Assembly: GCA_965112635.1 (NCBI GenBank)
Contig: OZ218778.1
Coordinates: forward strand, 243,666-307,665
Reading direction: 5' to 3'
DNA from: an uncultured bacterium
GTDB lineage: Bacteria; Oederibacteriota; Oederibacteriia; Oederibacteriales; Oederibacteriaceae
Length of the DNA: 64,000 bases
In this document: positions 1,691 through 57,302 of the stretch, one piece after another
How the letters are laid out: each line of letters starts with the position of its first letter
Numbering within the stretch: the first letter of the stretch is position 1
The notes under the pieces: model-generated
What the model saw: the letters and a program-made list of their open reading frames with translations, nothing else
What the model was told of the DNA's origin: nothing
Database searches by the model: none
Translations under genes and position numbers: made by a program

Positions 1691-1939
1691 ACTGCTCTCC
1701 TTTCGAGAAATTTAAAAAATGATAGCGTTATAGATGTTCTATTATTATAGGCCTTTGCTCTTTCGTCTAATTTTTGTTGGAAAATGGAAGGTTATTTTTT
1801 TTGATGTGAGATTATACATTAAAAAATAATAAATTGTAAACATCCCCGGCATATATATATAAAGAAGAACAATAGGCCAATTTACATAGGTTTACTGGGT
1901 CAAATACCAGCGGAAAAATTATGGGTTGAAGGACCTGAA

Positions 1940-1969
1940 CATGCTCAAGCATGCGTGCTTAAACACGTG
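1940..1969. promoter_or_regulatory. composite palindromic motif copy A (CATGCTCAAGCATG + degenerate CGTGCTTAAACACG), ~250 bp upstream of the AsrA-like gene
   Basis: read directly; related copies at 2051-2091 and 9151-9178. Confidence 0.4.
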
Positions 1970-2050
1970 GTCGTTCAACGGACACACTCTTTTTACTCTT
2001 TATAGCCCTCGTATGAGGGGTCCCCGAACAGGCTCACGTCATCACTGACG

Positions 2051-2091
2051 CATGCTTGAGCATGCGCCTGCGCACCTCGTGCTAAAGCACG
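2051..2091. promoter_or_regulatory. composite palindromic motif copy B (CATGCTTGAGCATG, 13-nt spacer, CGTGCTAAAGCACG)
   Basis: first half is the exact reverse complement of copy A first half; second half is the exact reverse complement of the 14-mer at 9165-9178. Confidence 0.4.
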
Positions 2092-2245
2092 TGCACCTTG
2101 AGGGCATGAGGGCGTGGGGATACCTTAAATCCTTATGGGGTTGTGCCCCGGATGTCTGCCCTACAAAGCTTTAGCGAAGTAGGGATGCTGGGAGGGGGTG
2201 TATTTGATCTAGTAAATACTGTTGGATTCTACCGGTTGGATTGCT

Positions 2246-3196
2246 TCAGCTTCCGTGCTCGTCCAGCCAGCGCAAGAGCTGGCTGATGCTTCCGGTCGCC
2301 AGGCTGATGTTGGTATCCGCCGCGCCGTAGTAAAGATTAATGGTATCCTTGTCGGCCCCCAGCGTGTATCCGCAGGGGAACACCACATTGGCCACATCGC
2401 CATGGCGCTCGTAGTCGGCCTCAGGACTAAAGATCCAGGAGTCGCCGCGCTTCAGGCATTGGTCCGGCTTGTCGAGCGCCAAGAGCGCCGCGCCCAGGCG
2501 GTAGATACACCCGGCCGCCGTTTGCCGGACCCCGTGATAAAGCATCAGCCAACCCCGGGAAGTCTCGATCAAAGGCGGAGAAAGCCCGATCTTGTTGGCG
2601 TCCCACCAGGCTCCTTTACGCGCCTTGAGGACGGGCTTATGGTCTCCCCAGTTCTGCAGGTCAGGCGAGTAGGAGATCCAGATGTCCGCCTGCGAGTAGG
2701 TCGTCGGGCGGTGGATGAGCGCGTAACTGCCGTTGATCCTGCGCGGCAGCAGAGTCGCGTCTTTGTCTTCCGGCTGCATGATCACGCCATAACGCTTGAA
2801 AACGCGGAAATCCTGCGTCTCGGCCAGTACCACGGCCGGGCCGCTTTTGCTGTAAGCGGTATACGCGACCATATAACTGCCGGACTCCTCAAAGTAGGTG
2901 ATCCGCGGGTCCTCGATCCCCCAAAGCTCCTCGGGATAATTCTGGGGATCAGGGCTGAGCGTGGGTTTTTGGTCAACGACCCACCCGTCTATCCCGTTCT
3001 TCGAGCGCGCCGCGCACAGGTGGGAATGCCCCCGCCGGTCCTCTACCCTGCAGAGCAGAAGCGTGGTGCCGTCCAAGAGCTTGATGGCGCCGGCGTTGAA
3101 CACCGTATGGGCCGGATACGGCCAGTCATCCGCCGTCAGGATTGGATTTTTTTCATGCCGTTTAAAAAGGACCTCATACCCGTGTTCCATGCTCAT
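2246..3196 (-). CDS. glycoside hydrolase family 130 protein (mannoside phosphorylase-like)
   Basis: 316-aa ORF with GH130-like signature (WGIEDPRITYFEESGSYMVAYTAYS); start overlaps stop of upstream gene (ATGA). Confidence 0.85.
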   Translation of the reverse strand: MSMEHGYEVLFKRHEKNPILTADDWPYPAHTVFNAGAIKLLDGTTLLLCRVEDRRGHSHLCAARSKNGIDGWVVDQKPTLSPDPQNYPEELWGIEDPRITYFEESGSYMVAYTAYSKSGPAVVLAETQDFRVFKRYGVIMQPEDKDATLLPRRINGSYALIHRPTTYSQADIWISYSPDLQNWGDHKPVLKARKGAWWDANKIGLSPPLIETSRGWLMLYHGVRQTAAGCIYRLGAALLALDKPDQCLKRGDSWIFSPEADYERHGDVANVVFPCGYTLGADKDTINLYYGAADTNISLATGSISQLLRWLDEHGS

Positions 3197-9150: not shown

Positions 9151-9178
9151 CATGCTCATGCATGCGTGCTTTAGCACG
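9151..9178. promoter_or_regulatory. composite palindromic motif copy C (CATGCTCATGCATG + CGTGCTTTAGCACG), ~240 bp upstream of hypC
   Basis: read directly; related to copies at 1940-1969 and 2051-2091. Confidence 0.4.
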
Positions 9179-9212: not shown

Positions 9213-9252
9213 GTTCGTATGCTATTCTATAAAAAATTAATAGCATACGAAC
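9213..9252. promoter_or_regulatory. candidate NikR operator: perfect 14-bp inverted repeat with 12-bp spacer, containing GTATGC-N19-GCATAC
   Basis: read directly; 50-90 bp upstream of the OMP gene that heads the nikR/nickel-uptake block; overlaps a possible -35 TTGGCA / -10 TATGCT. Confidence 0.45.
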
Positions 9253-9304: not shown

Positions 9305-10229
9305 ATGTTCCCCTCCAAAGTCTATCTATTCATTTTCACACTGCTCCTATTATCCTTGACCAATCAGGGCCTGTGCCATGTGATACCCACTACTCCTAAT
9401 GATGACTGGAATCCAGTTTCCACCGGCCCCATCAACACCTGGACCGCTTCCCTGGAACCCGCCGGGGAACTTAACACTCAGCTCTTTGTTTTTTACACCA
9501 TGACCACGGGATTTTATGACGGGGCGGGAAAGTTCTGGTCATTGCCGGATAACACCACCAAGACCCAGTTCCAGGAGCAGCTGTTCCTCCAATATGCTAT
9601 CAACCCTATGTTTGAAATGGATGCCCAACTTTCCACTTTTCAAAATACGCTCAAGGTCGGCGACCAGACTTCCTATTATAGTGGCCCGGGTGACTCGATC
9701 TTCTTTTTGCGTTATGCCATCGCCACCGAAACTCATCCTTACCCCTTCCTGACCGGCGTACTCCAGCTCAGGGTTCCCTCGGGCAATTTTCTTAACCAAA
9801 CCTCCACCCTAAGGACTTCTGATCTCACCGGCACGGGAAGCGTGGGCAGTGGGTATGGGGTTGATGGCCACCAAAAAACTCAAACCATTCTTGCTGCATA
9901 CCGACCTCATCTACAATGTACCCTTACAGACCCAGACCAATATCACTTCTATTAACTACGGCGACTCCGTGAATTATGACCTGGGTGCCGAATACTTTAT
10001 GTCCTACGGATTTAACCTGTCCATGGAGATGAATTATATCTACGAGGCCACTGGCAGTATTTATGGCTTATTCACTCCCGGCGTTTCGGGTAACTACCTC
10101 ATGCTGACCCCGGGACTAGGCTGGGCCGTAAAAAATACCCAGTTACTACTCGGCTATCAATGGGGACTCTATGGCGTCAACACCGATGCCCTAAGTTCCT
10201 ATGTCTTTACCGCCTCGGCTCCGTTCTAA
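9305..10229 (+). pseudogene. putative outer-membrane beta-barrel protein, reading frame broken at an A6 run near 9874-9879
   Basis: signal peptide MFPSKVYLFIFTLLLLSLTNQG, C-terminal aromatic residue; two overlapping ORFs (9305-9955, 9849-10229) rejoin if A6 is read as A5. Confidence 0.5.
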
Positions 10230-10684: not shown

Positions 10685-10816
10685 ACCGTATTTTCACTCG
10701 TAACTCCCAGTCCATATCTCCTCAAAAATAATGACCCTCAAACTCTTGACAGACCTACTCCTATGTGTTACTTTTCCAAAATTCGTGTTACTAATTATAC
10801 AAGAGGAGGATTTAAG

Positions 10817-48369: not shown

Positions 48370-49950
48370 TGGGGAACGGGGAAGGGGGATTGTTAAACAG
48401 CTGGTTGCTCAGGCATACAGGGCTTTGTGGACCGCGGCGAGCATGGTTTCGGACTCGTAGGGCTTGCCCAGGAACCGGTAACCCAGCTTGTCCAATTCGG
48501 GCAGTTCTATCCTGTCGTCCAGATAGCCGCTGCAGACCAGCACCTTGATGCCGGGGTTCTGCCTGCTGACCTCCTCCGCGAGCTGTCTGCCGTCCATGCC
48601 TGGCAGGATCATATCCGTAAAAAGCAGGTTGAATTTTTTCTTTTCTTCTTTAAAAGAGATGAGGGCCTCCTCTGCGTTCTGTGCGGGAAACACAATATAA
48701 CCATGCTTCTGGAGGATGACCGTGCTCAGGGCCAGGTTTTCCGGCTGGTCTTCCACCAGCAATATCCTTTCTCCGGTCCCCCGGCCGTACTCCAGCGCTA
48801 TTTTTTTTGACTCCCTGGGTTCCTCGCTCTTTCTGGTGTCCATAGGGAGCCACACCTTGAACTCCGTGCCCTGACCCGGCTGGCTGGACACATTGATCCA
48901 CCCGTTATGCTGTTTCACGATGCCATAGGTGACCGACAGCCCCAGTCCCGTGCCCTTGCCACGGGTCTTGGTGGTAAAAAAGGGCTCAAATATTTTTGCC
49001 ATGGTTATCGGCTCCATACCCTTCCCGTTGTCTTTGACCGTCAGGCACACGAACTCGCCAACCCGGGCTTCGGATATTTCCAGGGCCTGGCTCTCGCTTA
49101 GAGTGCAGTTGCAGGTCTGGATGAGCAATTGGCCGCCCTGGGTTATGGCATCCCGGGCATTGACGCAAAGGTTCATCAGGACCTGTTCCATCTGGGTCTG
49201 GTCGGCGTAGATGGCCTGGAGGCCCTTATCCAGCTCCAGTTTCAAAGTAACCTTTTCACCCACTGCCTCTTTGAGCATCTTTTCCATATCCTGGACCACT
49301 AGATTCAAGGAAAGGGACTTGGGGGACAGGTTTTGTTTGCGGCTGAACGCCAGCAGCTGACCGGTCAGGGCAGCGGCTTTTTTACCCGCGCCCTTTACTT
49401 CCTCCAGATAGGATTGGACAGCATCCCGGTCATCTTTTTTGATGAGGGCCAGGTCAGAGTAACCGATAATGACATTAAGCAGGTTGTTGAAATCATGGGC
49501 AATGCCTCCGGCCATCTCCCCGATAGAGGCCAATTTTTGGGCCTGCATCAGGCCCTGTTTCAGGAGTTTAAATTCCGTCACATTGGAGGCTATGGTGGAG
49601 AAACCGATGGCCTGGCCATTTTGTCCTTGAAGCGGGGTTATGGTCAAAGCCACCTGGATGGTCTCCCCGTTCTTGCGCAGGTGCTCGGTCTCAAAATGGG
49701 CAATTTTATGGCCTGCGTTGAGTTGCTCTGTAAGCATCCGCATCTCTTCTTTGCGTTCCGCGGGAACCAGTTGTTCCGCAGACATTCCAATGGCTTCCGC
49801 TGGGGAATAACCATAAATCTTTTCCGCACCCCTGTTCCAGCTCGTGATGAGGTTCGCCAAATCCCTGCTGAATATCGCGTTATCCGAGGATTCCACGATC
49901 GTCGCCAGCAGGCGGTCTTTTTCTTCCGCTTTCCGGCTCTCGGTGATGTC
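48370..49950. repeat. paralogous segment (3' part of hybrid kinase plus ~40 bp of 3' flank) duplicated at ~53130-54710; bounds approximate
   Basis: long near-identical protein stretches ([61 protein letters not shown]) and shared downstream GGGAAGGGGGATTGTTAAACAGCTGG. Confidence 0.6.
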
Positions 49951-51081
49951 CCTGGAAACGGCGAGTAAACCTATGATCTTTTTGTGTTCCGCCCCTTCCC
50001 AGATGGGGGTTTTGACTTCCCAGAACACCCGGCCATTCTCCGAGACGACCTCCTCGGTGGTCTGTTCGCCCTGTAAAACCCGGGCCTCAATGGCCTTGAT
50101 CTGCTCGGCCGCGCCAGTGGGCATCAGTTCGGAGTCCTGACGGCCTATCAATCCCTCCAGGGAACAGCGGAACAGCTCCAGGGTCGCCTTGTTGCCGTAA
50201 ACATACCGGGACTGGGCGTCCTTGAAATAGACATAAACGGGTATCTGGTCCATGATCTCCCGGAAACGCTGGGCTTCGTCCAGAGCCCTGAGCAGTTTCA
50301 ACTCCTCCTGCTTGCGTTCGGTGATGTCCTCGGATATGCCCAGCAAATATTTCGTGACCCCATCCTCCCCCCGAATGCAAACCTTGCGGGTATGAAGAAT
50401 CCGTTGGCCTTTCTTGGCTGTCAGGATAAATTCTTCCGGGATATCCAGCATCCCCGCTTCGCCATCCAGCACCTCACGGTCTTTGCTCATGAAATTGGCC
50501 GCCTGTTCAGGAGGGAAAAGGTCCAGGTTATTCCTGCCCAGCAGGTCTTTGCGGTCATATCCCAGGAGTTCCTCGCCCGCGCGGTTGAATATGACGAAAC
50601 GCAGGTCTTTGGACTCTTTGAGGAATATCATGAGCGGAATATTTTCTACGACGGATGCGAAAAGGCTTTTCGATTCCCTCAACTCCCTCTCCGACCGCTT
50701 GCGCTCTATGGCATATCTCAATGAACGGATCAGCAGGGAACCGTCAAATTTCCCTTTAACCAGATAATCTTCCGCGCCCGTATGAAGGGAATCCACAACT
50801 AGTGCTTCATCATCCAGCCCGGTGATCACCACCACCGCGGTCCCGGGGGCATTGCCCAGGATGCTTTTCAGCGTAGTGATCCCCTGACTGTCCGGCAAAT
50901 TAAGGTCTAGTATGAGGCCGTCAAACGAACTCTTGCGTAACTGATCGACCGCGTTATCCAGCGTGCCTACAGTTGATATTTCATACCGGCCGACACCGGC
51001 TTTTTTGACCATTTCCTGGATGAGCCGAGCATCGCCCGGATTGTCCTCGACCAATAATAGTTTTATCTTTGGCTCCTCCAT
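48409..51081 (-). CDS. hybrid sensor histidine kinase (REC, 3x PAS, HisKA, HATPase, REC)
   Basis: 890-aa ORF; N-terminal receiver [11 protein letters not shown]-box [11 protein letters not shown]-terminal receiver [10 protein letters not shown]. Confidence 0.85.
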   Translation of the reverse strand: MEEPKIKLLLVEDNPGDARLIQEMVKKAGVGRYEISTVGTLDNAVDQLRKSSFDGLILDLNLPDSQGITTLKSILGNAPGTAVVVITGLDDEALVVDSLHTGAEDYLVKGKFDGSLLIRSLRYAIERKRSERELRESKSLFASVVENIPLMIFLKESKDLRFVIFNRAGEELLGYDRKDLLGRNNLDLFPPEQAANFMSKDREVLDGEAGMLDIPEEFILTAKKGQRILHTRKVCIRGEDGVTKYLLGISEDITERKQEELKLLRALDEAQRFREIMDQIPVYVYFKDAQSRYVYGNKATLELFRCSLEGLIGRQDSELMPTGAAEQIKAIEARVLQGEQTTEEVVSENGRVFWEVKTPIWEGAEHKKIIGLLAVSRDITESRKAEEKDRLLATIVESSDNAIFSRDLANLITSWNRGAEKIYGYSPAEAIGMSAEQLVPAERKEEMRMLTEQLNAGHKIAHFETEHLRKNGETIQVALTITPLQGQNGQAIGFSTIASNVTEFKLLKQGLMQAQKLASIGEMAGGIAHDFNNLLNVIIGYSDLALIKKDDRDAVQSYLEEVKGAGKKAAALTGQLLAFSRKQNLSPKSLSLNLVVQDMEKMLKEAVGEKVTLKLELDKGLQAIYADQTQMEQVLMNLCVNARDAITQGGQLLIQTCNCTLSESQALEISEARVGEFVCLTVKDNGKGMEPITMAKIFEPFFTTKTRGKGTGLGLSVTYGIVKQHNGWINVSSQPGQGTEFKVWLPMDTRKSEEPRESKKIALEYGRGTGERILLVEDQPENLALSTVILQKHGYIVFPAQNAEEALISFKEEKKKFNLLFTDMILPGMDGRQLAEEVSRQNPGIKVLVCSGYLDDRIELPELDKLGYRFLGKPYESETMLAAVHKALYA

Positions 51082-51094
51082 TTTTTCCTGCGTC

Positions 51095-51544
51095 CTATCC
51101 TTGGAGAGGAAGCTTAACCACGGTCAGCCAGAAATCCTCTATAATTTTAACCACTTTATAAAACTGATTAAAATCCAAAGGTTTGGTGATATAGGCATTG
51201 GCATGAAGATTGTAGCTTTTTATAACATCCTCGTCCGCCTTGGAAACGGTCAAAACCACCACGGGAATGCTTTTCAAGGCCTCATCGGATTTGACCTCTT
51301 TTAGAACTTCCCTGCCGTTCTTCTTGGGGAGATTCAGGTCAAGCAAGACAATGTCCGGGCGGGATAATTTTTCGTATTTTCCCTGCTTCCTAAGATAAGC
51401 CATAGCTTCCACCCCATCCCCTACAACATTCAAAGCATTCCTTATCTTGGCATCCTTGAACGCCTCCTGGATAAGCCGAATATCACCCGGATTGTCCTCC
51501 ACCAGCAGTATTTCTATCGGCTTTCCTATATTATTCATTTCCAT
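51095..51544 (-). CDS. single-domain response regulator of the phytochrome-associated (Rcp-like) CheY type
   Basis: 149-aa receiver ([27 protein letters not shown]). Confidence 0.85.
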
Positions 51545-51559
51545 TTTCCCCTCCTCCTA

Positions 51560-52655
51560 TTAATCTTTTAAAGTGAAATAAAAAACTGTGCCCTTTCCAT
51601 ATTCGGACTCATACCATATCTTCCCCCCATTACGCTCCACGATACGCTTGCAAACAGCCAGGCCCACCCCGTTACCGGGGTACTTGACCCCTGCCAACCG
51701 CTGAAATAGGGAAAAAACCCTATCCTTATACTGGGGTTCTATTCCGATACCATTGTCCTTGATGGAAAAAACAACCTCTTTTCCCTTTTTCCCCGCAGAA
51801 AGATGAACACACGGTGCCTGTTCTCCGCAAAACTTGATGGAGTTGGCAATGAGATTCTGCAAAACCTGAAGAAGCTGGGAGGGGTCGGCCATGACCGCTG
51901 GCAAAGGATCTGTGGGTAATGACCGCTTTATTCTCTAATATGGCCAATTTCAGATTGGCCAGAGCGCCTTTAAGGACCTCCTCGGTATCCACCAGCTCCA
52001 GGGGTTTAGCCTGGGACTCTACCCGTGAGAATAATAACAGACCGTCAATGAGTCCCTGCATGCGGGTAGCTCCGTCTACGGCGAAATTGATGAATTCATC
52101 AGCATCCTGGTCCAGTTTGCCTTTATAGCGTTGCTCTATCAATTGAAGATAACTTACGACCATCCGGAGCGGCTCCTGCAGGTCGTGGGAGGCGATATTG
52201 GCGAACTGCTGGAGGTCTTCATTGCTGCTTTTTAGTTTTAAGGCATATTTCCTAATCTCCTCTTCCTCTTTGTGCCTGGTGATGTCCTCGATGGCCAGAA
52301 GAATGATATGCTCTTTTCCTAATGCTCTCTGAATTTGCCTTGCATTCAAAAGTAAGATGCGCCGGCCAATGGTGTCAAAATCGTGCTCCACCTCAAAATT
52401 GTCAAAGGAGGTCTTTTGAGGAAGGATGTTTTCCAGCAGTTCCCTTAGCTGGGGAATATTCCACTGTTTGTTACCCAGGTCATAGATTAACTGCCCCACC
52501 GTCTCTGCCGGGTTTACCTTAAAAAATTCATAGAAGGAACGGCTGGCGGAGATGACCCTGAGGTCCTGGTCCAGAACGACCAAGGGTTCGCGAATGGTAT
52601 TGATAATGCTTTCGGCGTATTCCTGGGATTCTACTGCTGTTTTTTCGCTAAACAT
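51560..52655 (-). pseudogene. PAS sensor histidine kinase, frame broken near 51905-51925 between HisKA and HATPase
   Basis: ORF 51726-52655 carries PAS and H-box (SHDLQEPLR); ORF 51560-51904 carries N-box/HATPase (QVLQNLIANSIKF, DNGIGI) in another frame. Confidence 0.65.
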
Positions 52656-52712
52656 TTCTTATCTCCTTGCTGGCTGCCTGGCCGCGTTCCCTGGCCCTTT
52701 CAGGCCAAGGCT

Positions 52713-52895
52713 TTACCTATGGAGTGAAAATACTACTGAGCTTGTTTTTGCAGGAGTTCGGATTGTAGGATGGTGATGTCTGTGGGTGGTGCGGCTCGAG
52801 GTGAAATTATTCTTGCAGGTATGGTTGAGTCCCTCAAAAATACTTCCCTTGAGGCTGGGACATTTCATATCACAGGTACAGTTATCTTTGGTCAT
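52713..52895 (-). pseudogene. internally deleted remnant of an FNR-like regulator gene (paralog of 56524-57219)
   Basis: N-terminal 27 codons (MTKDNCTCDMKCPSLKGSIFEGLNHTC) match the intact paralog; last ~12 codons in another frame (ILQSELLQKQAQ, stop at 52734) match its C-terminus. Confidence 0.55.
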
Positions 52896-52901
52896 TTTCT
52901 A

Positions 52902-53129: not shown

Positions 53130-54710
53130 TTTCTGTAAAGGGGGAAGGGGGATTGTTAAACAGCTGGCTGCTCAGGAATACAGGGCTTTTTGGACCGCCG
53201 CCAGCATGGTTTCGGATTCGTAAGGTTTGGCTAGGAACTGGAAACCTTGGTTGGTGAGTTCGTTTTGCTCCACGATCTTATCCAGATAACCGCTGGTCAC
53301 CAGCACCCGGATGTTAGGATTCTCTTTTCGGATTTCCTTGATAAGTGCATTCCCATCCATGCCGGGCAGAATGATGTCGGTAAAAAGCAATTTAAACCCT
53401 TTTTTCTCTTCCTTGAACGCCCTGAGGGCGTCTTCTGCATTCTCAGCGGGAAAAACAGTATAACCTTGTTCTTCGAGTATCTTGGTGGCCAGGGCCAGAT
53501 TGTCCGGCTGGTCCTCCACCAAAAGTATTTTTTCACCAGCGCCCCGGCCGTGCTCCAGGGCTATTTTCTTTTGTAGCTTGGGCTCCTGGTCTTTGCGTTC
53601 ATCCCTGGGGAACCATATCCTGAACTCTGTGCCTTTCCCAGGCTGACTGGACACATTGATCCACCCGTTATGCTGTTTCACGATGCCATAGGTGACGGAC
53701 AGGCCCAGGCCCGTGCCCTTGCCCCTGCTCTTGGTGGTAAAAAAGGGGTCAAATATTTTGGTCAGGGTCATGAAATTCATTCCTATACCGTTGTCCTTGA
53801 CTGTCAGGACTATAAAATCCCCGGGACGGGCTTCACGGATAACCTGCGCTTCTAACTGGCCAAGGGACACTGCCTGGGTCTTGATAAGCAGTTGGCCTCC
53901 CTGAGGCATGGCGTCGCGGGCGTTGACGCACAGGTTCATCAGGACCTGCCCTAACTGGTTCTGGTCCGCATATATTCTTTCTTGTCCTTTACTCAAGGCC
54001 AGCGTAAGCACGACGTGTTCACCCACCGCCTCTTTGAGTATTTTTTCCATACCCAGGACCACTTCATTCAGGGATAAGGACTGGAGGGACTGGTTCTGTT
54101 TGCGGCTGAAGGCCAGCAATTGTCCGGTCAGGGAGGCGGCTTTTATGCCCGCGCCTTTTATCTCCTCCAGGTAGTTCCTGGCGGCAGTCCAGTCATTGGC
54201 TTTCATCAGGGCCAAGTCAGAATAGCCGATGATGACGTTGAGCAGGTTGTTGAAATCATGGGCAATGCCTCCGGCCAATTCCCCGACAGAGGCCATTTTC
54301 TGGGTCTGGACCAAATCGCTCTGCAGGCGCCGGAATTCGGTGATATCGGTGGCGATGGTGGACCCGCCGACGACCTGGCCGTTCTTGTCGTAGATAGGCG
54401 AAAGGGCCAGCATCACCTGGACCCGGGTCCCATTTTTATGCAGGCGCTCTGTCTCAAAGCGCAGTATGGGTTGGCCAAGGTTAAGTTTTTTGGTGATCTC
54501 CAGCATCTCTTCCCTGCGTTCCGGAGGGACCAATTTTTCCGCGGACATGCCGATAGCCTCCTGGACGGAATACCCATATATCTTTTCCGCGCCCTTGTTC
54601 CAGCTCAAAATTATTTGATGATGGTCCCTGCTGAATATCGCGTCACCTGAGGATTCCGCGATGGTGGCCAGCAAGCGGTTTTTTTGTTCGGCTTCCCGGC
54701 GCTGGGTAAT
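53130..54710. repeat. second copy of the paralogous hybrid-kinase segment (see 48370-49950); bounds approximate
   Basis: same shared protein stretches and 3' flank. Confidence 0.6.
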
Positions 54711-56507
54711 ATCTTGGACATAGTTCACAAAATAAAGGATAACTCCCGTGGAGGGCTTGCGCACTGCAGCCACAGACACATTGGCCCAAATAATCCGGCC
54801 GTCCTTGCGTAAATACCGCTTTTCTAGGATGGCATTGTCAGCCTCACCCTCCGTCATGCTCCTCATGGCTTTTAACCCTATTTCATAATCTTCCGGATGA
54901 GTGATGCTGTTAAAGGTTTTGCCTAAAAGCTCATTCTCACCAAACCCCAGCATTTCGTTCATGGCCCGGTTGACCCTGAGATACCGGCCTTCAATATCCA
55001 CTAGGCTGACCCCGACCACGGCGTTTTCAAAAGAGGTCCTGAAAAGCTCCTCGCTCTCGGCCAAGGCCTTTTCAGCTTGCCGGCGTTCAGTCACATCGCT
55101 CATAAAATTGAGCGTAGCCAGCCGGCCCTGCCATTCGATCCTGACGGCGTTTATCTGCACCCAGCGCAGCTGGCCCGAAGCGGTCAGGATGCGGAACTCA
55201 TATATTTTTTCCAGGTCCTCCCCAGCCAGCCGTCTCAGGTGGTTTGCCGCGACCATGGCCCGGTCTTCCGGATAGATGAAATCAGTGAAAGGATGGCGGG
55301 ATATCTCTTCGGGTGGATATCCCAATTCCCGGACTGTGGCCTTGTTCACGAAAACCAGTTTGTTGTCCTGGGCCACCATGATCATTTCCTGGGAATTTTC
55401 CACGACCTGGCGGTATCTTTTCTCGCTCTCCCGCAGTGCTTCTGAAGCTTTCCTGAACTCGGTAATATCCCTTGCCGAGCTGAGCGTCCCGGTGATGCGC
55501 CCCTCCTCATCATGGACAAGGGAGTTATGAAAAGCCAATAAACGCCTGTCTCCTTGTTTGGTGACCACAAAATTCTCAAAATATTCAACTGGCTTGATAG
55601 CGCCGGAGATGATCTGGTCAAAAACAGAATGGACAGCCTGATACTCCTCGGGAGTAACGCAGGTCTTGAACCAGTCCTTGCCCAGGAGCTCTCCCTCCTG
55701 GTAACCGAGGAGTTCGTGACCCTTACGGTTGAGGAGCACGACCTGGCCCTGGGTGTCCAGCACCACCATCAATACCTGGGCAACTTCAAGATATTCGGAG
55801 GCTTTTCTTCTTTCGGCCCTTAAATACGCCACATCCTTCTTGCGCAGGGTCACATCGTTGGCCATGGATATATTTAACTTTCGCCCATCCGCGGTCCGGC
55901 CCAAGGCAGTAGATTGAAATTCCCAAACCCGGGTCTTCCCGCTTTTCGTCTTGACTGTGAACTCTCCCTCATTGTACCGGATGCCATCGTCCAGAGAAAA
56001 AAACAGATTTCTCCGGGACTGGACTTTGTCCTTTTTCAGCCCATAGGCAAGCTCAAGCCAAGCATCTAGTGTAGGTATGTCCGCCCGGCTATATCCGGTC
56101 AGTTCTTCCCAAACCTGGTTGACCCGGATGACCTCGCCATCCTCCGCGTAGATCATGATGGGAAACGGTGACAGCTGTATCACTTTTTCCCGCTGTTCCA
56201 GGCTGAGCCTCTCGGCTTTTTCTATGTGCTGGAGCAAAACGACCACGATAAACATGGAAAGGGATAAGGCAAAACGCCTCCCGGTCTCCAGAGGGTCAAT
56301 CGTGCTGGGAACATGGTTTACGAGCATCTGATACAGGGGGGAAAACGCAGGTAAAAGATCAAAACAAGGGCCAAACCCATGAAGGACCAGGAGACTTTCC
56401 TTTTGGACTTGGGCAGGCCCAGGAGGACCATCACCATGGCTATGAGGGCAATGATGGCCGAGGCCACATTGACCACGGTCAAAAACATGGCTGTCCCTCC
56501 TTTTCAA
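53172..56507 (-). CDS. hybrid multi-PAS sensor histidine kinase with C-terminal receiver; N-terminus uncertain
   Basis: multiple PAS, H-box [10 protein letters not shown], HATPase, receiver [10 protein letters not shown]; a 56-aa 2-TM ORF with strong RBS (56318-56488) lies in a neighbouring frame across a C6 run. Confidence 0.8.
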
Positions 56508-56523
56508 TGTATGGTGACGATGA

Positions 56524-57219
56524 TTACTGGGCTTCCTTTTGCAGGAGTTCGGACTGCAGGACTGTGATCCTTTTGCCTACCAGGGAAATGATCTTTTTTT
56601 TCTCCAGTACTTTCAGGGCCCGGATGGCGGTCTCCTGGGCCGTGTCCGCCAGCTCGGCCAGCTCGGTCCGGGAAAGCTGGATGTTGAGCGAACCGTCCTT
56701 GGCCGGAGCATAGTCCCGGGCCAGCTTGCACAGCACCTCGGCCACCCGGTTCTTGACCGGCTTTTGGACCGCGCTTTCCAGCCGGGACAGGGTGTCGCCC
56801 ACCTCGGCTCCCATCCGGCTCATGATGTTCTCTCCCAGCCGGGGATCCAGCCCCAAGGCCGCGAATAAAATGGAGCGTTCAATGAAGCAGACCTGGGTTT
56901 CCTCCAGGGTTTCCGCAGAGGTGAAATTGACCTTGCCCGACATCAGCGCGGACACACCCAGCGCATCACACGGTCCGGCGATCTGGACGATCTGCTCGCG
57001 GTCCAGGCGGCCGGTTTTGTAGAGTTTTACTTTTCCGGAACGGATGTGATAAATGCCGTAGGGTTTATTGCCCTCATAAAAAAGGTTTTGTTTGGGTTTG
57101 TAGGTGTTGGTGGTGCGGCCCTTGGCGATATAATCCAGGCATTCATGGTTAAGCCCCTCGAATATACTTCCCTTGTAGCCGGGACATTTGGCGTCACAGG
57201 TCCAGTTTTGATTGACCAT
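56524..57219 (-). CDS. Crp/Fnr-family regulator with FNR-like cysteine pattern
   Basis: cNMP-binding-like fold plus C-terminal HTH (LSRTELAELADTAQETAIRALK); N-terminal C8-x3-C12-x14-C27 plus internal Cys (GPCDALG); AAGGAAG RBS before ATG 57219. Confidence 0.8.
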   Translation of the reverse strand: MVNQNWTCDAKCPGYKGSIFEGLNHECLDYIAKGRTTNTYKPKQNLFYEGNKPYGIYHIRSGKVKLYKTGRLDREQIVQIAGPCDALGVSALMSGKVNFTSAETLEETQVCFIERSILFAALGLDPRLGENIMSRMGAEVGDTLSRLESAVQKPVKNRVAEVLCKLARDYAPAKDGSLNIQLSRTELAELADTAQETAIRALKVLEKKKIISLVGKRITVLQSELLQKEAQ

Positions 57220-57302
57220 CCACGCTTCCTTTCTCCCCTGCCTCAATGTCTACATATAAAGTATAGTCCTTATAACCTGATTTCTGACAATGAAATGGCT
57301 GG

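Follow-up and report, generated by a model that had tools for sequence, protein, structure and literature searches.

A modular palindromic intergenic repeat probably accounts for the hairpin-rich spacer upstream of a [NiFe]-hydrogenase operon

The GC-rich half (about positions 1925-2120) of a 555-bp spacer upstream of a [NiFe]-hydrogenase operon is probably one copy of a lineage-specific intergenic repeat, modular and palindromic in build, rather than a feature of the hydrogenase operon. The spacer lies near one end of a 64-kb stretch of bacterial DNA, referred to here as the window. The element is repeated at unrelated loci, and the predicted hydrogenase promoter lies downstream of it. As we reconstruct it, the element would be built from 14-nt stem-loops (5-bp stem, 4-nt loop, C...G ends) placed side by side inside short closing stems, with two modules of opposite orientation facing each other at the window locus. 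The long copies sit at operon 3' ends, share the orientation of the gene upstream and precede the AT-rich stretch in which the next unit would have its promoter. The AT-rich half of the spacer (1700-1925) would then supply the hydrogenase operon with its promoter and a plain leader.

Results

The spacer is flanked by the start of a Fer4_22 iron-sulfur gene and the stop of a GH130 glycoside phosphorylase gene (Table 1), which agrees with the sequence-only reading that had placed it between GH130 and an Fe-S operon. The hydrogenase operon beginning with the Fer4_22 gene continues past the window edge. It goes on to encode a cNMP-binding protein, an NAD-binding/DHODB subunit, the [NiFe]-hydrogenase small and large subunits, a HycI protease and HypF. 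Because Fer4_22 homologues carry the name 'sulfhydrogenase subunit beta' in the sources, the operon is assigned to the group-3-type cytoplasmic [NiFe]-hydrogenases. In the portion off the window (L057 12092-13386), the large subunit is called as two pieces of 274 and 120 aa, where homologues are single proteins of 431-432 aa. The split results from a 1-nt frameshift in GTGGGCCGCTC, at which the expected protein reading is PYFVG-PLARYNLN; this is either a long-read assembly error or the mark of a pseudogene. The C-terminal motif of the large subunit, DPCISCATH, indicates cysteine, not selenocysteine.

The general description given by the sequence-only reading was sound. It had called the region free of ORFs, and the only ORFs in the spacer are 31-47 aa long, none of them credible. 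It had called the spacer large, and no other gap between the first dozen genes reaches its 555 bp (the next are 392, 225, and 218 bp or less). The division into AT-rich and GC-rich halves is also apparent, with a GC content of 27-36% at 1700-1950 and 51-59% at 1950-2200. The flanking genes have about 60% GC, close to the value for 1950-2200; this half is therefore GC-rich merely relative to its AT-rich neighbor.

Within the spacer there are six perfect palindromes (5-bp stem, 4-nt loop), compared to a mean of 0.61 in dinucleotide shuffles. None of 1000 shuffles attained six, and the enrichment therefore exceeds chance. The count is also higher than in any other 555-nt stretch of the window (mean 0.7; all others ≤3), and the spacer folds better than its shuffles on each strand (z = -4.3 and -4.5). 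The three hairpins singled out earlier all exist: CGTCA-TCAC-TGACG at 2037-2050, GGGG-TTGTG-CCCC at 2137-2149, and CCCTC-GTAT-GAGGG, whose true position is 2006-2019 and not 2008-2021 (off by 2). The most informative palindromes, at 1940-1953, 1954-1967, 2051-2064 and 2078-2091, had been absent from that account.

Table 1. Features of the spacer, its flanking genes and the copies of the repeat. Positions are those of the window unless a segment label (L065) is given.
Feature	Position	Strand	Remarks
Fer4_22 iron-sulfur gene	539-1690	minus	ATG at 1690; first gene of hydrogenase operon
Whole spacer	1691-2245	none	GH130 stop to hydrogenase-operon start; both flanks minus
Shine-Dalgarno AGGAG	1696-1700	minus	5 nt before ATG at 1690
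Sigma-70-like promoter candidate, hydrogenase operon	1811-1840	minus	TTTACA (1840-1835), 18 nt, TATAAT (1816-1811)
17-nt inverted repeat, left arm	1891-1907	none	15/17 complementary to 2200-2216
Second module	1925-1979	plus	Opposite to core; double palindrome CATGCTCAAGCATG + CGTGCTTAAACACG inside closing stem
Palindrome CATGCTCAAGCATG	1940-1953		Left unit of double palindrome in 1925-1979 module
Palindrome CGTGCTTAAACACG	1954-1967		Right unit of double palindrome in 1925-1979 module
Core repeat unit	1986-2120	minus	TCCCCACGCCCTC ... AGGTGCGCAGGC-G-CATGCTCAAGCATG-CGTCAGTGATGACG-TGA-GCCTGTTCGGGGA-CCCCTCATACGAGGG-CTATAAAGAGTAAAAAGAGT
14-nt palindrome CCCTCGTATGAGGG	2006-2019	none	Kept in second copy except one loop base
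14-nt palindrome CGTCATCACTGACG	2037-2050	none	Slot taken by CGAGCTTGAGCTCG in second copy
14-nt palindrome CATGCTTGAGCATG (type 1)	2051-2064	none	
30-nt insertion relative to second copy	2078-2107	minus	Partial duplication of adjoining CCCTC-AGGTGC + palindrome CGTGCTAAAGCACG
Palindrome CGTGCTAAAGCACG	2078-2091		Inside 30-nt insertion
GGGG-TTGTG-CCCC hairpin	2137-2149	none	Beyond part common to second copy
17-nt inverted repeat, right arm	2200-2216	none	Pair brackets hairpin block
GH130 glycoside phosphorylase gene	2246-3196	minus	Upstream of spacer in transcription sense
GT4 glycosyltransferase gene, 752 aa	3193-5451		Overlaps GH130 gene
Short third copy, 28-nt double palindrome CATGCTCATGCATG-CGTGCTTTAGCACG	9151-9178	none	Between divergent hypC (minus) and nickel-uptake cluster (plus)
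Second copy of core repeat unit	L065 2405-2508		Orientation of upstream Robl_LC7 gene

Read on the minus strand, the core unit starts with TCCCCACGCCCTC, followed by a closing helix in which TGCGCAGGC is paired with GCCTGTKCG and which encloses two abutting 14-nt hairpins. Beyond the helix are GGGGA, a third hairpin (CCCTCATRCGAGGG) and an A-rich tail containing two tandem TAAAGAGT-like 9-mers. In the same orientation, the palindrome added by the 30-nt insertion reads CGTGCTTTAGCACG. The closing stem of the second module is 11 bp long with one mismatch (1925-1935 with 1969-1979), and core and module share the same stem-hairpin-hairpin-stem plan in opposite orientation, an arrangement seen at this one locus.

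Look-ups of window proteins extended the contig on both sides, adding 27 kb for a total of 91 kb. A second long copy of the element was present in the extension: window positions 1986-2077 align with L065 2417-2508 over 92 nt at 87% identity (blastn-short, E 1e-19). A perfect CATGCTTGAGCATG is located at L065 2430-2443, about 14.9 kb past the right window end (window-equivalent 78853). The 13-mer TCCCCACGCCCTC (window 2120-2108) is common to both long copies and occurs nowhere else in the 91 kb, and the tail motifs are likewise confined to these two copies. The second copy starts about 18 nt after the stop of a co-oriented Roadblock/LC7 (Robl_LC7) gene, compared to 125 nt between the co-oriented upstream gene and the copy in the window. 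The 595-bp spacer in which it lies is followed by a tRNA gene and a URO-D-family gene. None of these neighbors is related to hydrogenase or nickel, and the hairpin block is therefore a dispersed repeat.

The palindrome CRTGCT-NN-AGCAYG occurs six times in the 64-kb window, against 0.46 expected, and at two loci only: four within 1940-2091 and two at 9151-9178. One more is present in the extra 27 kb. At 9151-9178 the likeness to the other copies is confined to the 28 nt of the double palindrome, with no similarity in the flanks, and a wider duplication of the hydrogenase and hyp upstream regions was rejected for this reason. As the double palindrome stands alone there, the element is modular. 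The 91 kb, read from an assembly whose longest contig measures 2.88 Mb, hold three loci, two long and one short, and their varying module content makes the family a mosaic of small modules. A cluster of four palindromes at window-equivalent 69.5 kb proved unrelated; it is AT-rich coding DNA of a methyltransferase gene.

Two further observations were made in the extension. On the segment with the second copy, GGAAACGCATTATTA is present twice (L065 2771-2785 and 2859-2873), 88 nt apart with hairpins between, and the tRNA gene (2885-2958) is just downstream; the repeated sequence may be a duplicated promoter element. At L064 800-3491 (window-equivalent about 68.6-71.3 kb) there is an IS1595-family transposase gene, followed by a D12-class adenine methyltransferase gene and an unknown gene, a trio also found on a Logan contig from run ERR11523656. 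The transposase is single-copy, and the contig walk that started from it added the 9 kb holding the second copy.

Comparison of the two long copies revealed that the hairpin form is conserved. Across the aligned 92 nt there are 12 differences, 7 of which fall inside one 14-nt palindrome, CGTCAGTGATGACG in the window and CGAGCTTGAGCTCG in the second copy (minus strand). Three stem pairs of this palindrome changed, all on both sides (CGTCA..TGACG vs CGAGC..GCTCG), so that both versions are perfect. In all, five stem sequences take a single form: C, NNNN, a 4-nt loop, the complement N'N'N'N', and G. Hairpin geometry is maintained while stem sequence varies, which argues for selection or templated repair of the hairpin itself and against a site for a sequence-specific protein. 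The sequence-only reading had held the structure to be real and had called for an alignment showing compensatory base changes. The alignment bears this out: the second copy keeps the same hairpins, and one stem survives three two-sided changes.

These compensatory changes and two conserved G-U pairs are also compatible with an RNA element. The copies could be a family of structured RNAs, either a 3'-UTR element or a multicopy small RNA, that acts post-transcriptionally and is transcribed in the sense of the flanking genes, forming a junction with two tandem tetraloop hairpins and a third hairpin. Such a family overlaps with the repeat, because REP-like repeats can act as RNA. Besides the three two-sided changes, several features point in this direction. 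Both long copies are co-oriented with the upstream gene, and the closing helix retains its two G-U pairs on the gene-sense strand of both copies, where the opposite strand has C-A mismatches. The imperfect palindrome at 1954-1967 likewise has a U-G wobble on the minus strand and a C-A mismatch on the plus strand, and the sense strand of the second copy has a fold z-score of -5.8. However, the window core scores -1.7 in sense and -2.9 in antisense, and the fold z-scores thus lack a consistent strand preference, as expected of DNA palindromes. The G-T pairs of the outer 17-nt inverted repeat are on the opposite strand to the G-U pairs of the closing helix. The shared part has neither a conserved promoter before it nor a terminator after it in either direction, and nothing in Rfam matched it even at permissive thresholds. 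Covariation statistics are weak, as two sequences are too few for them: 59 of 500 shuffles equaled or exceeded the observed value. Evidence for upkeep at the DNA level and at the RNA level is mixed, and we consider the RNA family unlikely.

To the Rfam result we add that the covariance scan, a check proposed by the sequence-only reading, returned no relevant match at permissive thresholds for the window region or for the second copy, whether riboswitch, leader or sRNA. The sole match was to CrcZ, in the AT-rich half. Scans for tRNA and tmRNA genes (ARAGORN) and for tandem repeats (TRF) were empty.

The best promoter candidate for the hydrogenase operon, TTTACA-18-TATAAT, has 11 of 12 matches to the consensus, and its status is that of a consensus match only. 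All hairpins are upstream of this candidate, within the 3' region belonging to the GT4-GH130 unit. Transcription from this candidate would start near 1804, and the predicted leader would be about 113 nt long, AT-rich and free of any GC-rich palindrome. This arrangement lends no support to the earlier suggestion of a structured 5' leader: every hairpin is upstream of the promoter candidate, the predicted leader is plain, and the second copy of the element comes after an unrelated gene and before a tRNA gene and a URO-D gene. The suggestion of a small RNA found no backing either, as there was no Rfam match, no shared promoter, no terminator and no strand preference in folding. In particular, no promoter common to the regions upstream of both long copies was found, and there were no intrinsic terminators (GC-rich hairpin plus U run) at 1500-2500 on either strand.

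The predicted leader contains an A-rich stretch (1747-1807, minus strand; ACAUCAAAAAAAAUAACC...CCAACAAAAAUUAGACGAAA), which is the part that resembles the CrcZ model. The match is sub-threshold at 21 bits (gathering score 95), and the resemblance is one of low complexity only. Such A-rich motifs can nevertheless serve as binding sites for Hfq or Crc-type proteins.

Hydrogenase or nickel genes adjoin two of the three loci, a possible hint of a regulatory role. The CRTGCT-NN-AGCAYG palindromes could be operator or enhancer sites of a dimeric factor, Crp/Fnr-like or NikR, that co-regulates the hydrogenase, hyp and nickel genes. They lie upstream of the hydrogenase operon and upstream of hypCDE and the nickel cluster, at similar distances from the minus-strand start codons (250-277 and 239-266 nt). 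The sites come in adjacent pairs with a Crp/Fnr-like 5-4-5 geometry, and nikR and Crp-family regulators are encoded in the window, as are a TonB-dependent receptor with ExbB and TonB and a NikMNQO-type transporter. The 28-nt doublet also matches the E. coli NikR operator in its 6-N16-6 span (PMC7055735). That the hydrogenase and hyp upstream regions are similar over 28 nt only is consistent with a binding site as well as with a very short repeat. Against shared operators, the remaining locus holds the same palindrome within the 92-nt shared repeat beside unrelated genes, and compensatory stem variation preserves the hairpin, not a recognition sequence. More than 100 nt separate the sites from the promoter candidate downstream of them, and two homologous hydrogenase loci in other phyla lacked such palindrome boxes. 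No sigma-54 promoter (TGGCAC-N5-TTGC, ≤2 mismatches) was found between the palindromes and either start codon, and sigma-54-type matches in total were fewer than the shuffle expectation. We therefore rejected a sigma-54 enhancer (UAS) arrangement, which lacks a -24/-12 promoter downstream of the palindromes. Overall, we regard operators of a shared regulon as very unlikely.

The NikR signal predicted for delta-proteobacteria, including Geobacter, is GTGTTAC-N13/14-GTAACAC (PMC545781). There is no such signal in 1691-2245, and GTGTTAC occurs only twice in the 64 kb, at 10765 and 10785. These two form a direct, not inverted, repeat, GTGTTAC-N13-GTGTTAC (10765-10791), directly after nikR; a TTGACA box (10748) precedes the pair, and the RBS/ATG of the TonB-dependent receptor gene follows it. 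The pair is likely a NikR operator of the TonB-dependent nickel uptake cluster. The NikR of the window has an R-G-S beta-sheet, and with the GTGTTAC pair near the receptor gene it has a better candidate site elsewhere; the palindromes were rejected as NikR operators on these grounds. A perfect 13-nt inverted repeat, GTTCGTATGCTAT-N14-ATAGCATACGAAC (9213-9252), overlaps a sigma-70-like promoter (TTGGCA 9195, TATGCT 9223) about 55 nt upstream of a secreted-looking gene at 9305, the head of the nikR cluster, and is itself a candidate operator.

The hairpin block is bracketed by a 17-nt inverted repeat with 15 of 17 positions complementary, and a 341-nt segment folds as one long hairpin (z = -4.2), as might a MITE spanning 1891-2216 with the 17-nt repeat as its ends. 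The putative terminal repeat is found nowhere else in the 91 kb and is missing from the second copy, whose similarity to the window locus stops well short of the 1891-2216 bounds. Direct reading of the outer edges of the block revealed no target-site duplication. With a locus-unique repeat and no duplication, a MITE with these ends was rejected and appears extremely improbable. More generally, neither a target-site duplication nor a shared terminal repeat marks the ends of the element, and a RAYT/IS200-type transposase (Y1_Tnp) was absent from the L057, L064 and L065 genes and the scanned window ORFs, among which IS1595 was the only transposase.

The element was also sought in other genomes. 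A distant blastn search of plasmids and phages gave no match. The double-palindrome pattern gave 13 matches in representative genomes (genome_contigs), 42 in JGI metagenomes (metagenome_contigs) and 1 in viral_contigs; inspection showed all of them to be chance matches in coding DNA, tandem GCATGCTCGA arrays or alga-like simple sequence. The host organism was absent from the genome_contigs matches, and the core pattern had 0 matches in viral_contigs. The 28-nt double palindrome served as the probe in the public scans, for which the 92-nt core would be the better choice. The closest Fer4_22 homologue is 63% identical and belongs to other phyla, so that orthologous spacers cannot be aligned.

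One of the two homologous hydrogenase loci, from a KSB1 bacterium (GCA_034505955.1, L059 3168-3660), has an upstream spacer of 833 bp. This spacer holds two tandem repeats of about 200 nt with hairpins (e.g. ACTCCGYGAGGAGT) and an inverted partial copy, and the repeats are unrelated in sequence to the element described here.

Discussion

The element shares many properties with known intergenic repeats. REPs in the broad sense have a high copy number, usually >100 per genome; for our element three loci were counted in the 91 kb. The modular intergenic repeats BOX of Streptococcus pneumoniae and ERIC/IRU are about 100-200 nt long, with subunits that may be present, absent or duplicated. Like them, the element combines strong predicted secondary structure and variable modules with no coding capacity. 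It differs from them in sequence and in host lineage, and its module bounds are drawn from three loci only. The Correia/NEMIS MITEs are small non-coding repeats with inverted-repeat potential, inserted next to promoters. The element fits this description, yet its copies share no terminal inverted repeats and lack a target-site duplication, the hallmarks by which a MITE would be recognized. Crp/Fnr-type operator boxes have the form 5-N4-5. Our 14-nt 5-4-5 palindromes resemble such boxes in being paired upstream of operons, but the half-site varies, one box belongs to a repeat copy outside any regulon, and the boxes are far from the promoter.

Resemblance to REPs goes further. REP and BIME elements are described as short intergenic palindromes that form mosaics in opposite orientations and whose presumed mode of action is as transcribed RNA hairpins (PMC3733652; PMC2817692). 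REPs are reported between co-directional or convergent genes, near the 3' end of the upstream ORF (PMC3733652). Our element likewise consists of short palindromic intergenic units at unrelated loci, in mosaics and opposite orientations as in REPs, BIMEs and REPINs, and its stem is maintained through compensatory change. The long copies are extragenic and follow the 3' end of a co-directional gene, while the short copy is between divergent genes. By this analogy, the operon 3' ends occupied by the long copies would be the usual niche of REP/BIME-type repeats.

The tagged REP super-families are defined by an unpaired GTAG or CGTC (or TGTC, CCTC) at one end of the palindrome and by units of 20-40 bp whose stems measure about 8-9 bp or longer (PMC3733652). 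Our units, in contrast, are 14 nt with 5-bp stems and 4-nt loops. They carry no unpaired GTAG/CGTC tag and no CCA-like tail of the kind described for tagged REPs (PMC3733652). Each is fully palindromic from its first C to its last G, and CGTC is present solely as paired stem bases of one unit. Neither by tag nor by unit and stem size, then, does the element belong to the GTAG or CGTC super-family. Unlike REPs, it also has about 100 nt of non-palindromic sequence conserved around its hairpins, and no RAYT was seen in the 91 kb. As it falls outside the tagged REPs and its behavior is REP/BIME- or BOX-like, we class it as a new family, specific to its lineage, of the broad type 'palindromic intergenic repeat', without counting it among the REP, BIME or BOX elements themselves.

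Such a repeat may have spread as a small non-autonomous DNA element or through recombination. Any effect on the host would most likely be on the upstream GT4-GH130 transcript: the hairpin cluster could act as a barrier to 3' exonucleases, or reduce read-through into the hydrogenase operon and in this way insulate the hydrogenase promoter. It is also conceivable, and in our judgment quite unlikely, that the conserved unit has a function of its own as a nucleic-acid structure, being either a new 3'-UTR or small-RNA class that marks operon ends or the single-strand hairpin substrate of an unrecognised non-RAYT HUH-type enzyme.

Recognition of the palindromic repeat is of use in annotation, where it keeps a hairpin-rich spacer from being taken for a riboswitch-like leader or a regulator of hydrogenase. 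The 92-nt core and the 14-nt units provide a probe for a repeat family in a lineage without close sequenced relatives, and GAGCCTGTNCGGGGACCCCTCATNCGAGGGCTATAAAGAGT can be used to search public genomes and metagenomes. If the family proves abundant, REP-like elements would extend to far shorter, tagless units, and the copies would form a natural data set on the upkeep of hairpins at the DNA or the RNA level.

Two minor observations concern the window as a whole. A block encoding a PAS hybrid histidine kinase is duplicated at 48375-52900 and 53138-57250 (offset 4763 nt, 72-83% nucleotide identity), and 52781-52895 is connected to the Crp-family regulator gene at 56524-57246 by a further repeat, offset by 4324 nt. 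The duplicates are recent paralogous signalling modules, and a search for same-genome paralogues of the PAS histidine kinase found only the one already in the window. The hexamer CACGTG occurs just twice in the 64 kb (1964-1969 and 2088-2093), each time within the repeat element, and four of the nine GCATGC sites of the window (1949, 2050, 2060 and 9160) are also within the element. This suggests that both hexamers are avoided elsewhere, possibly as a consequence of restriction-modification.
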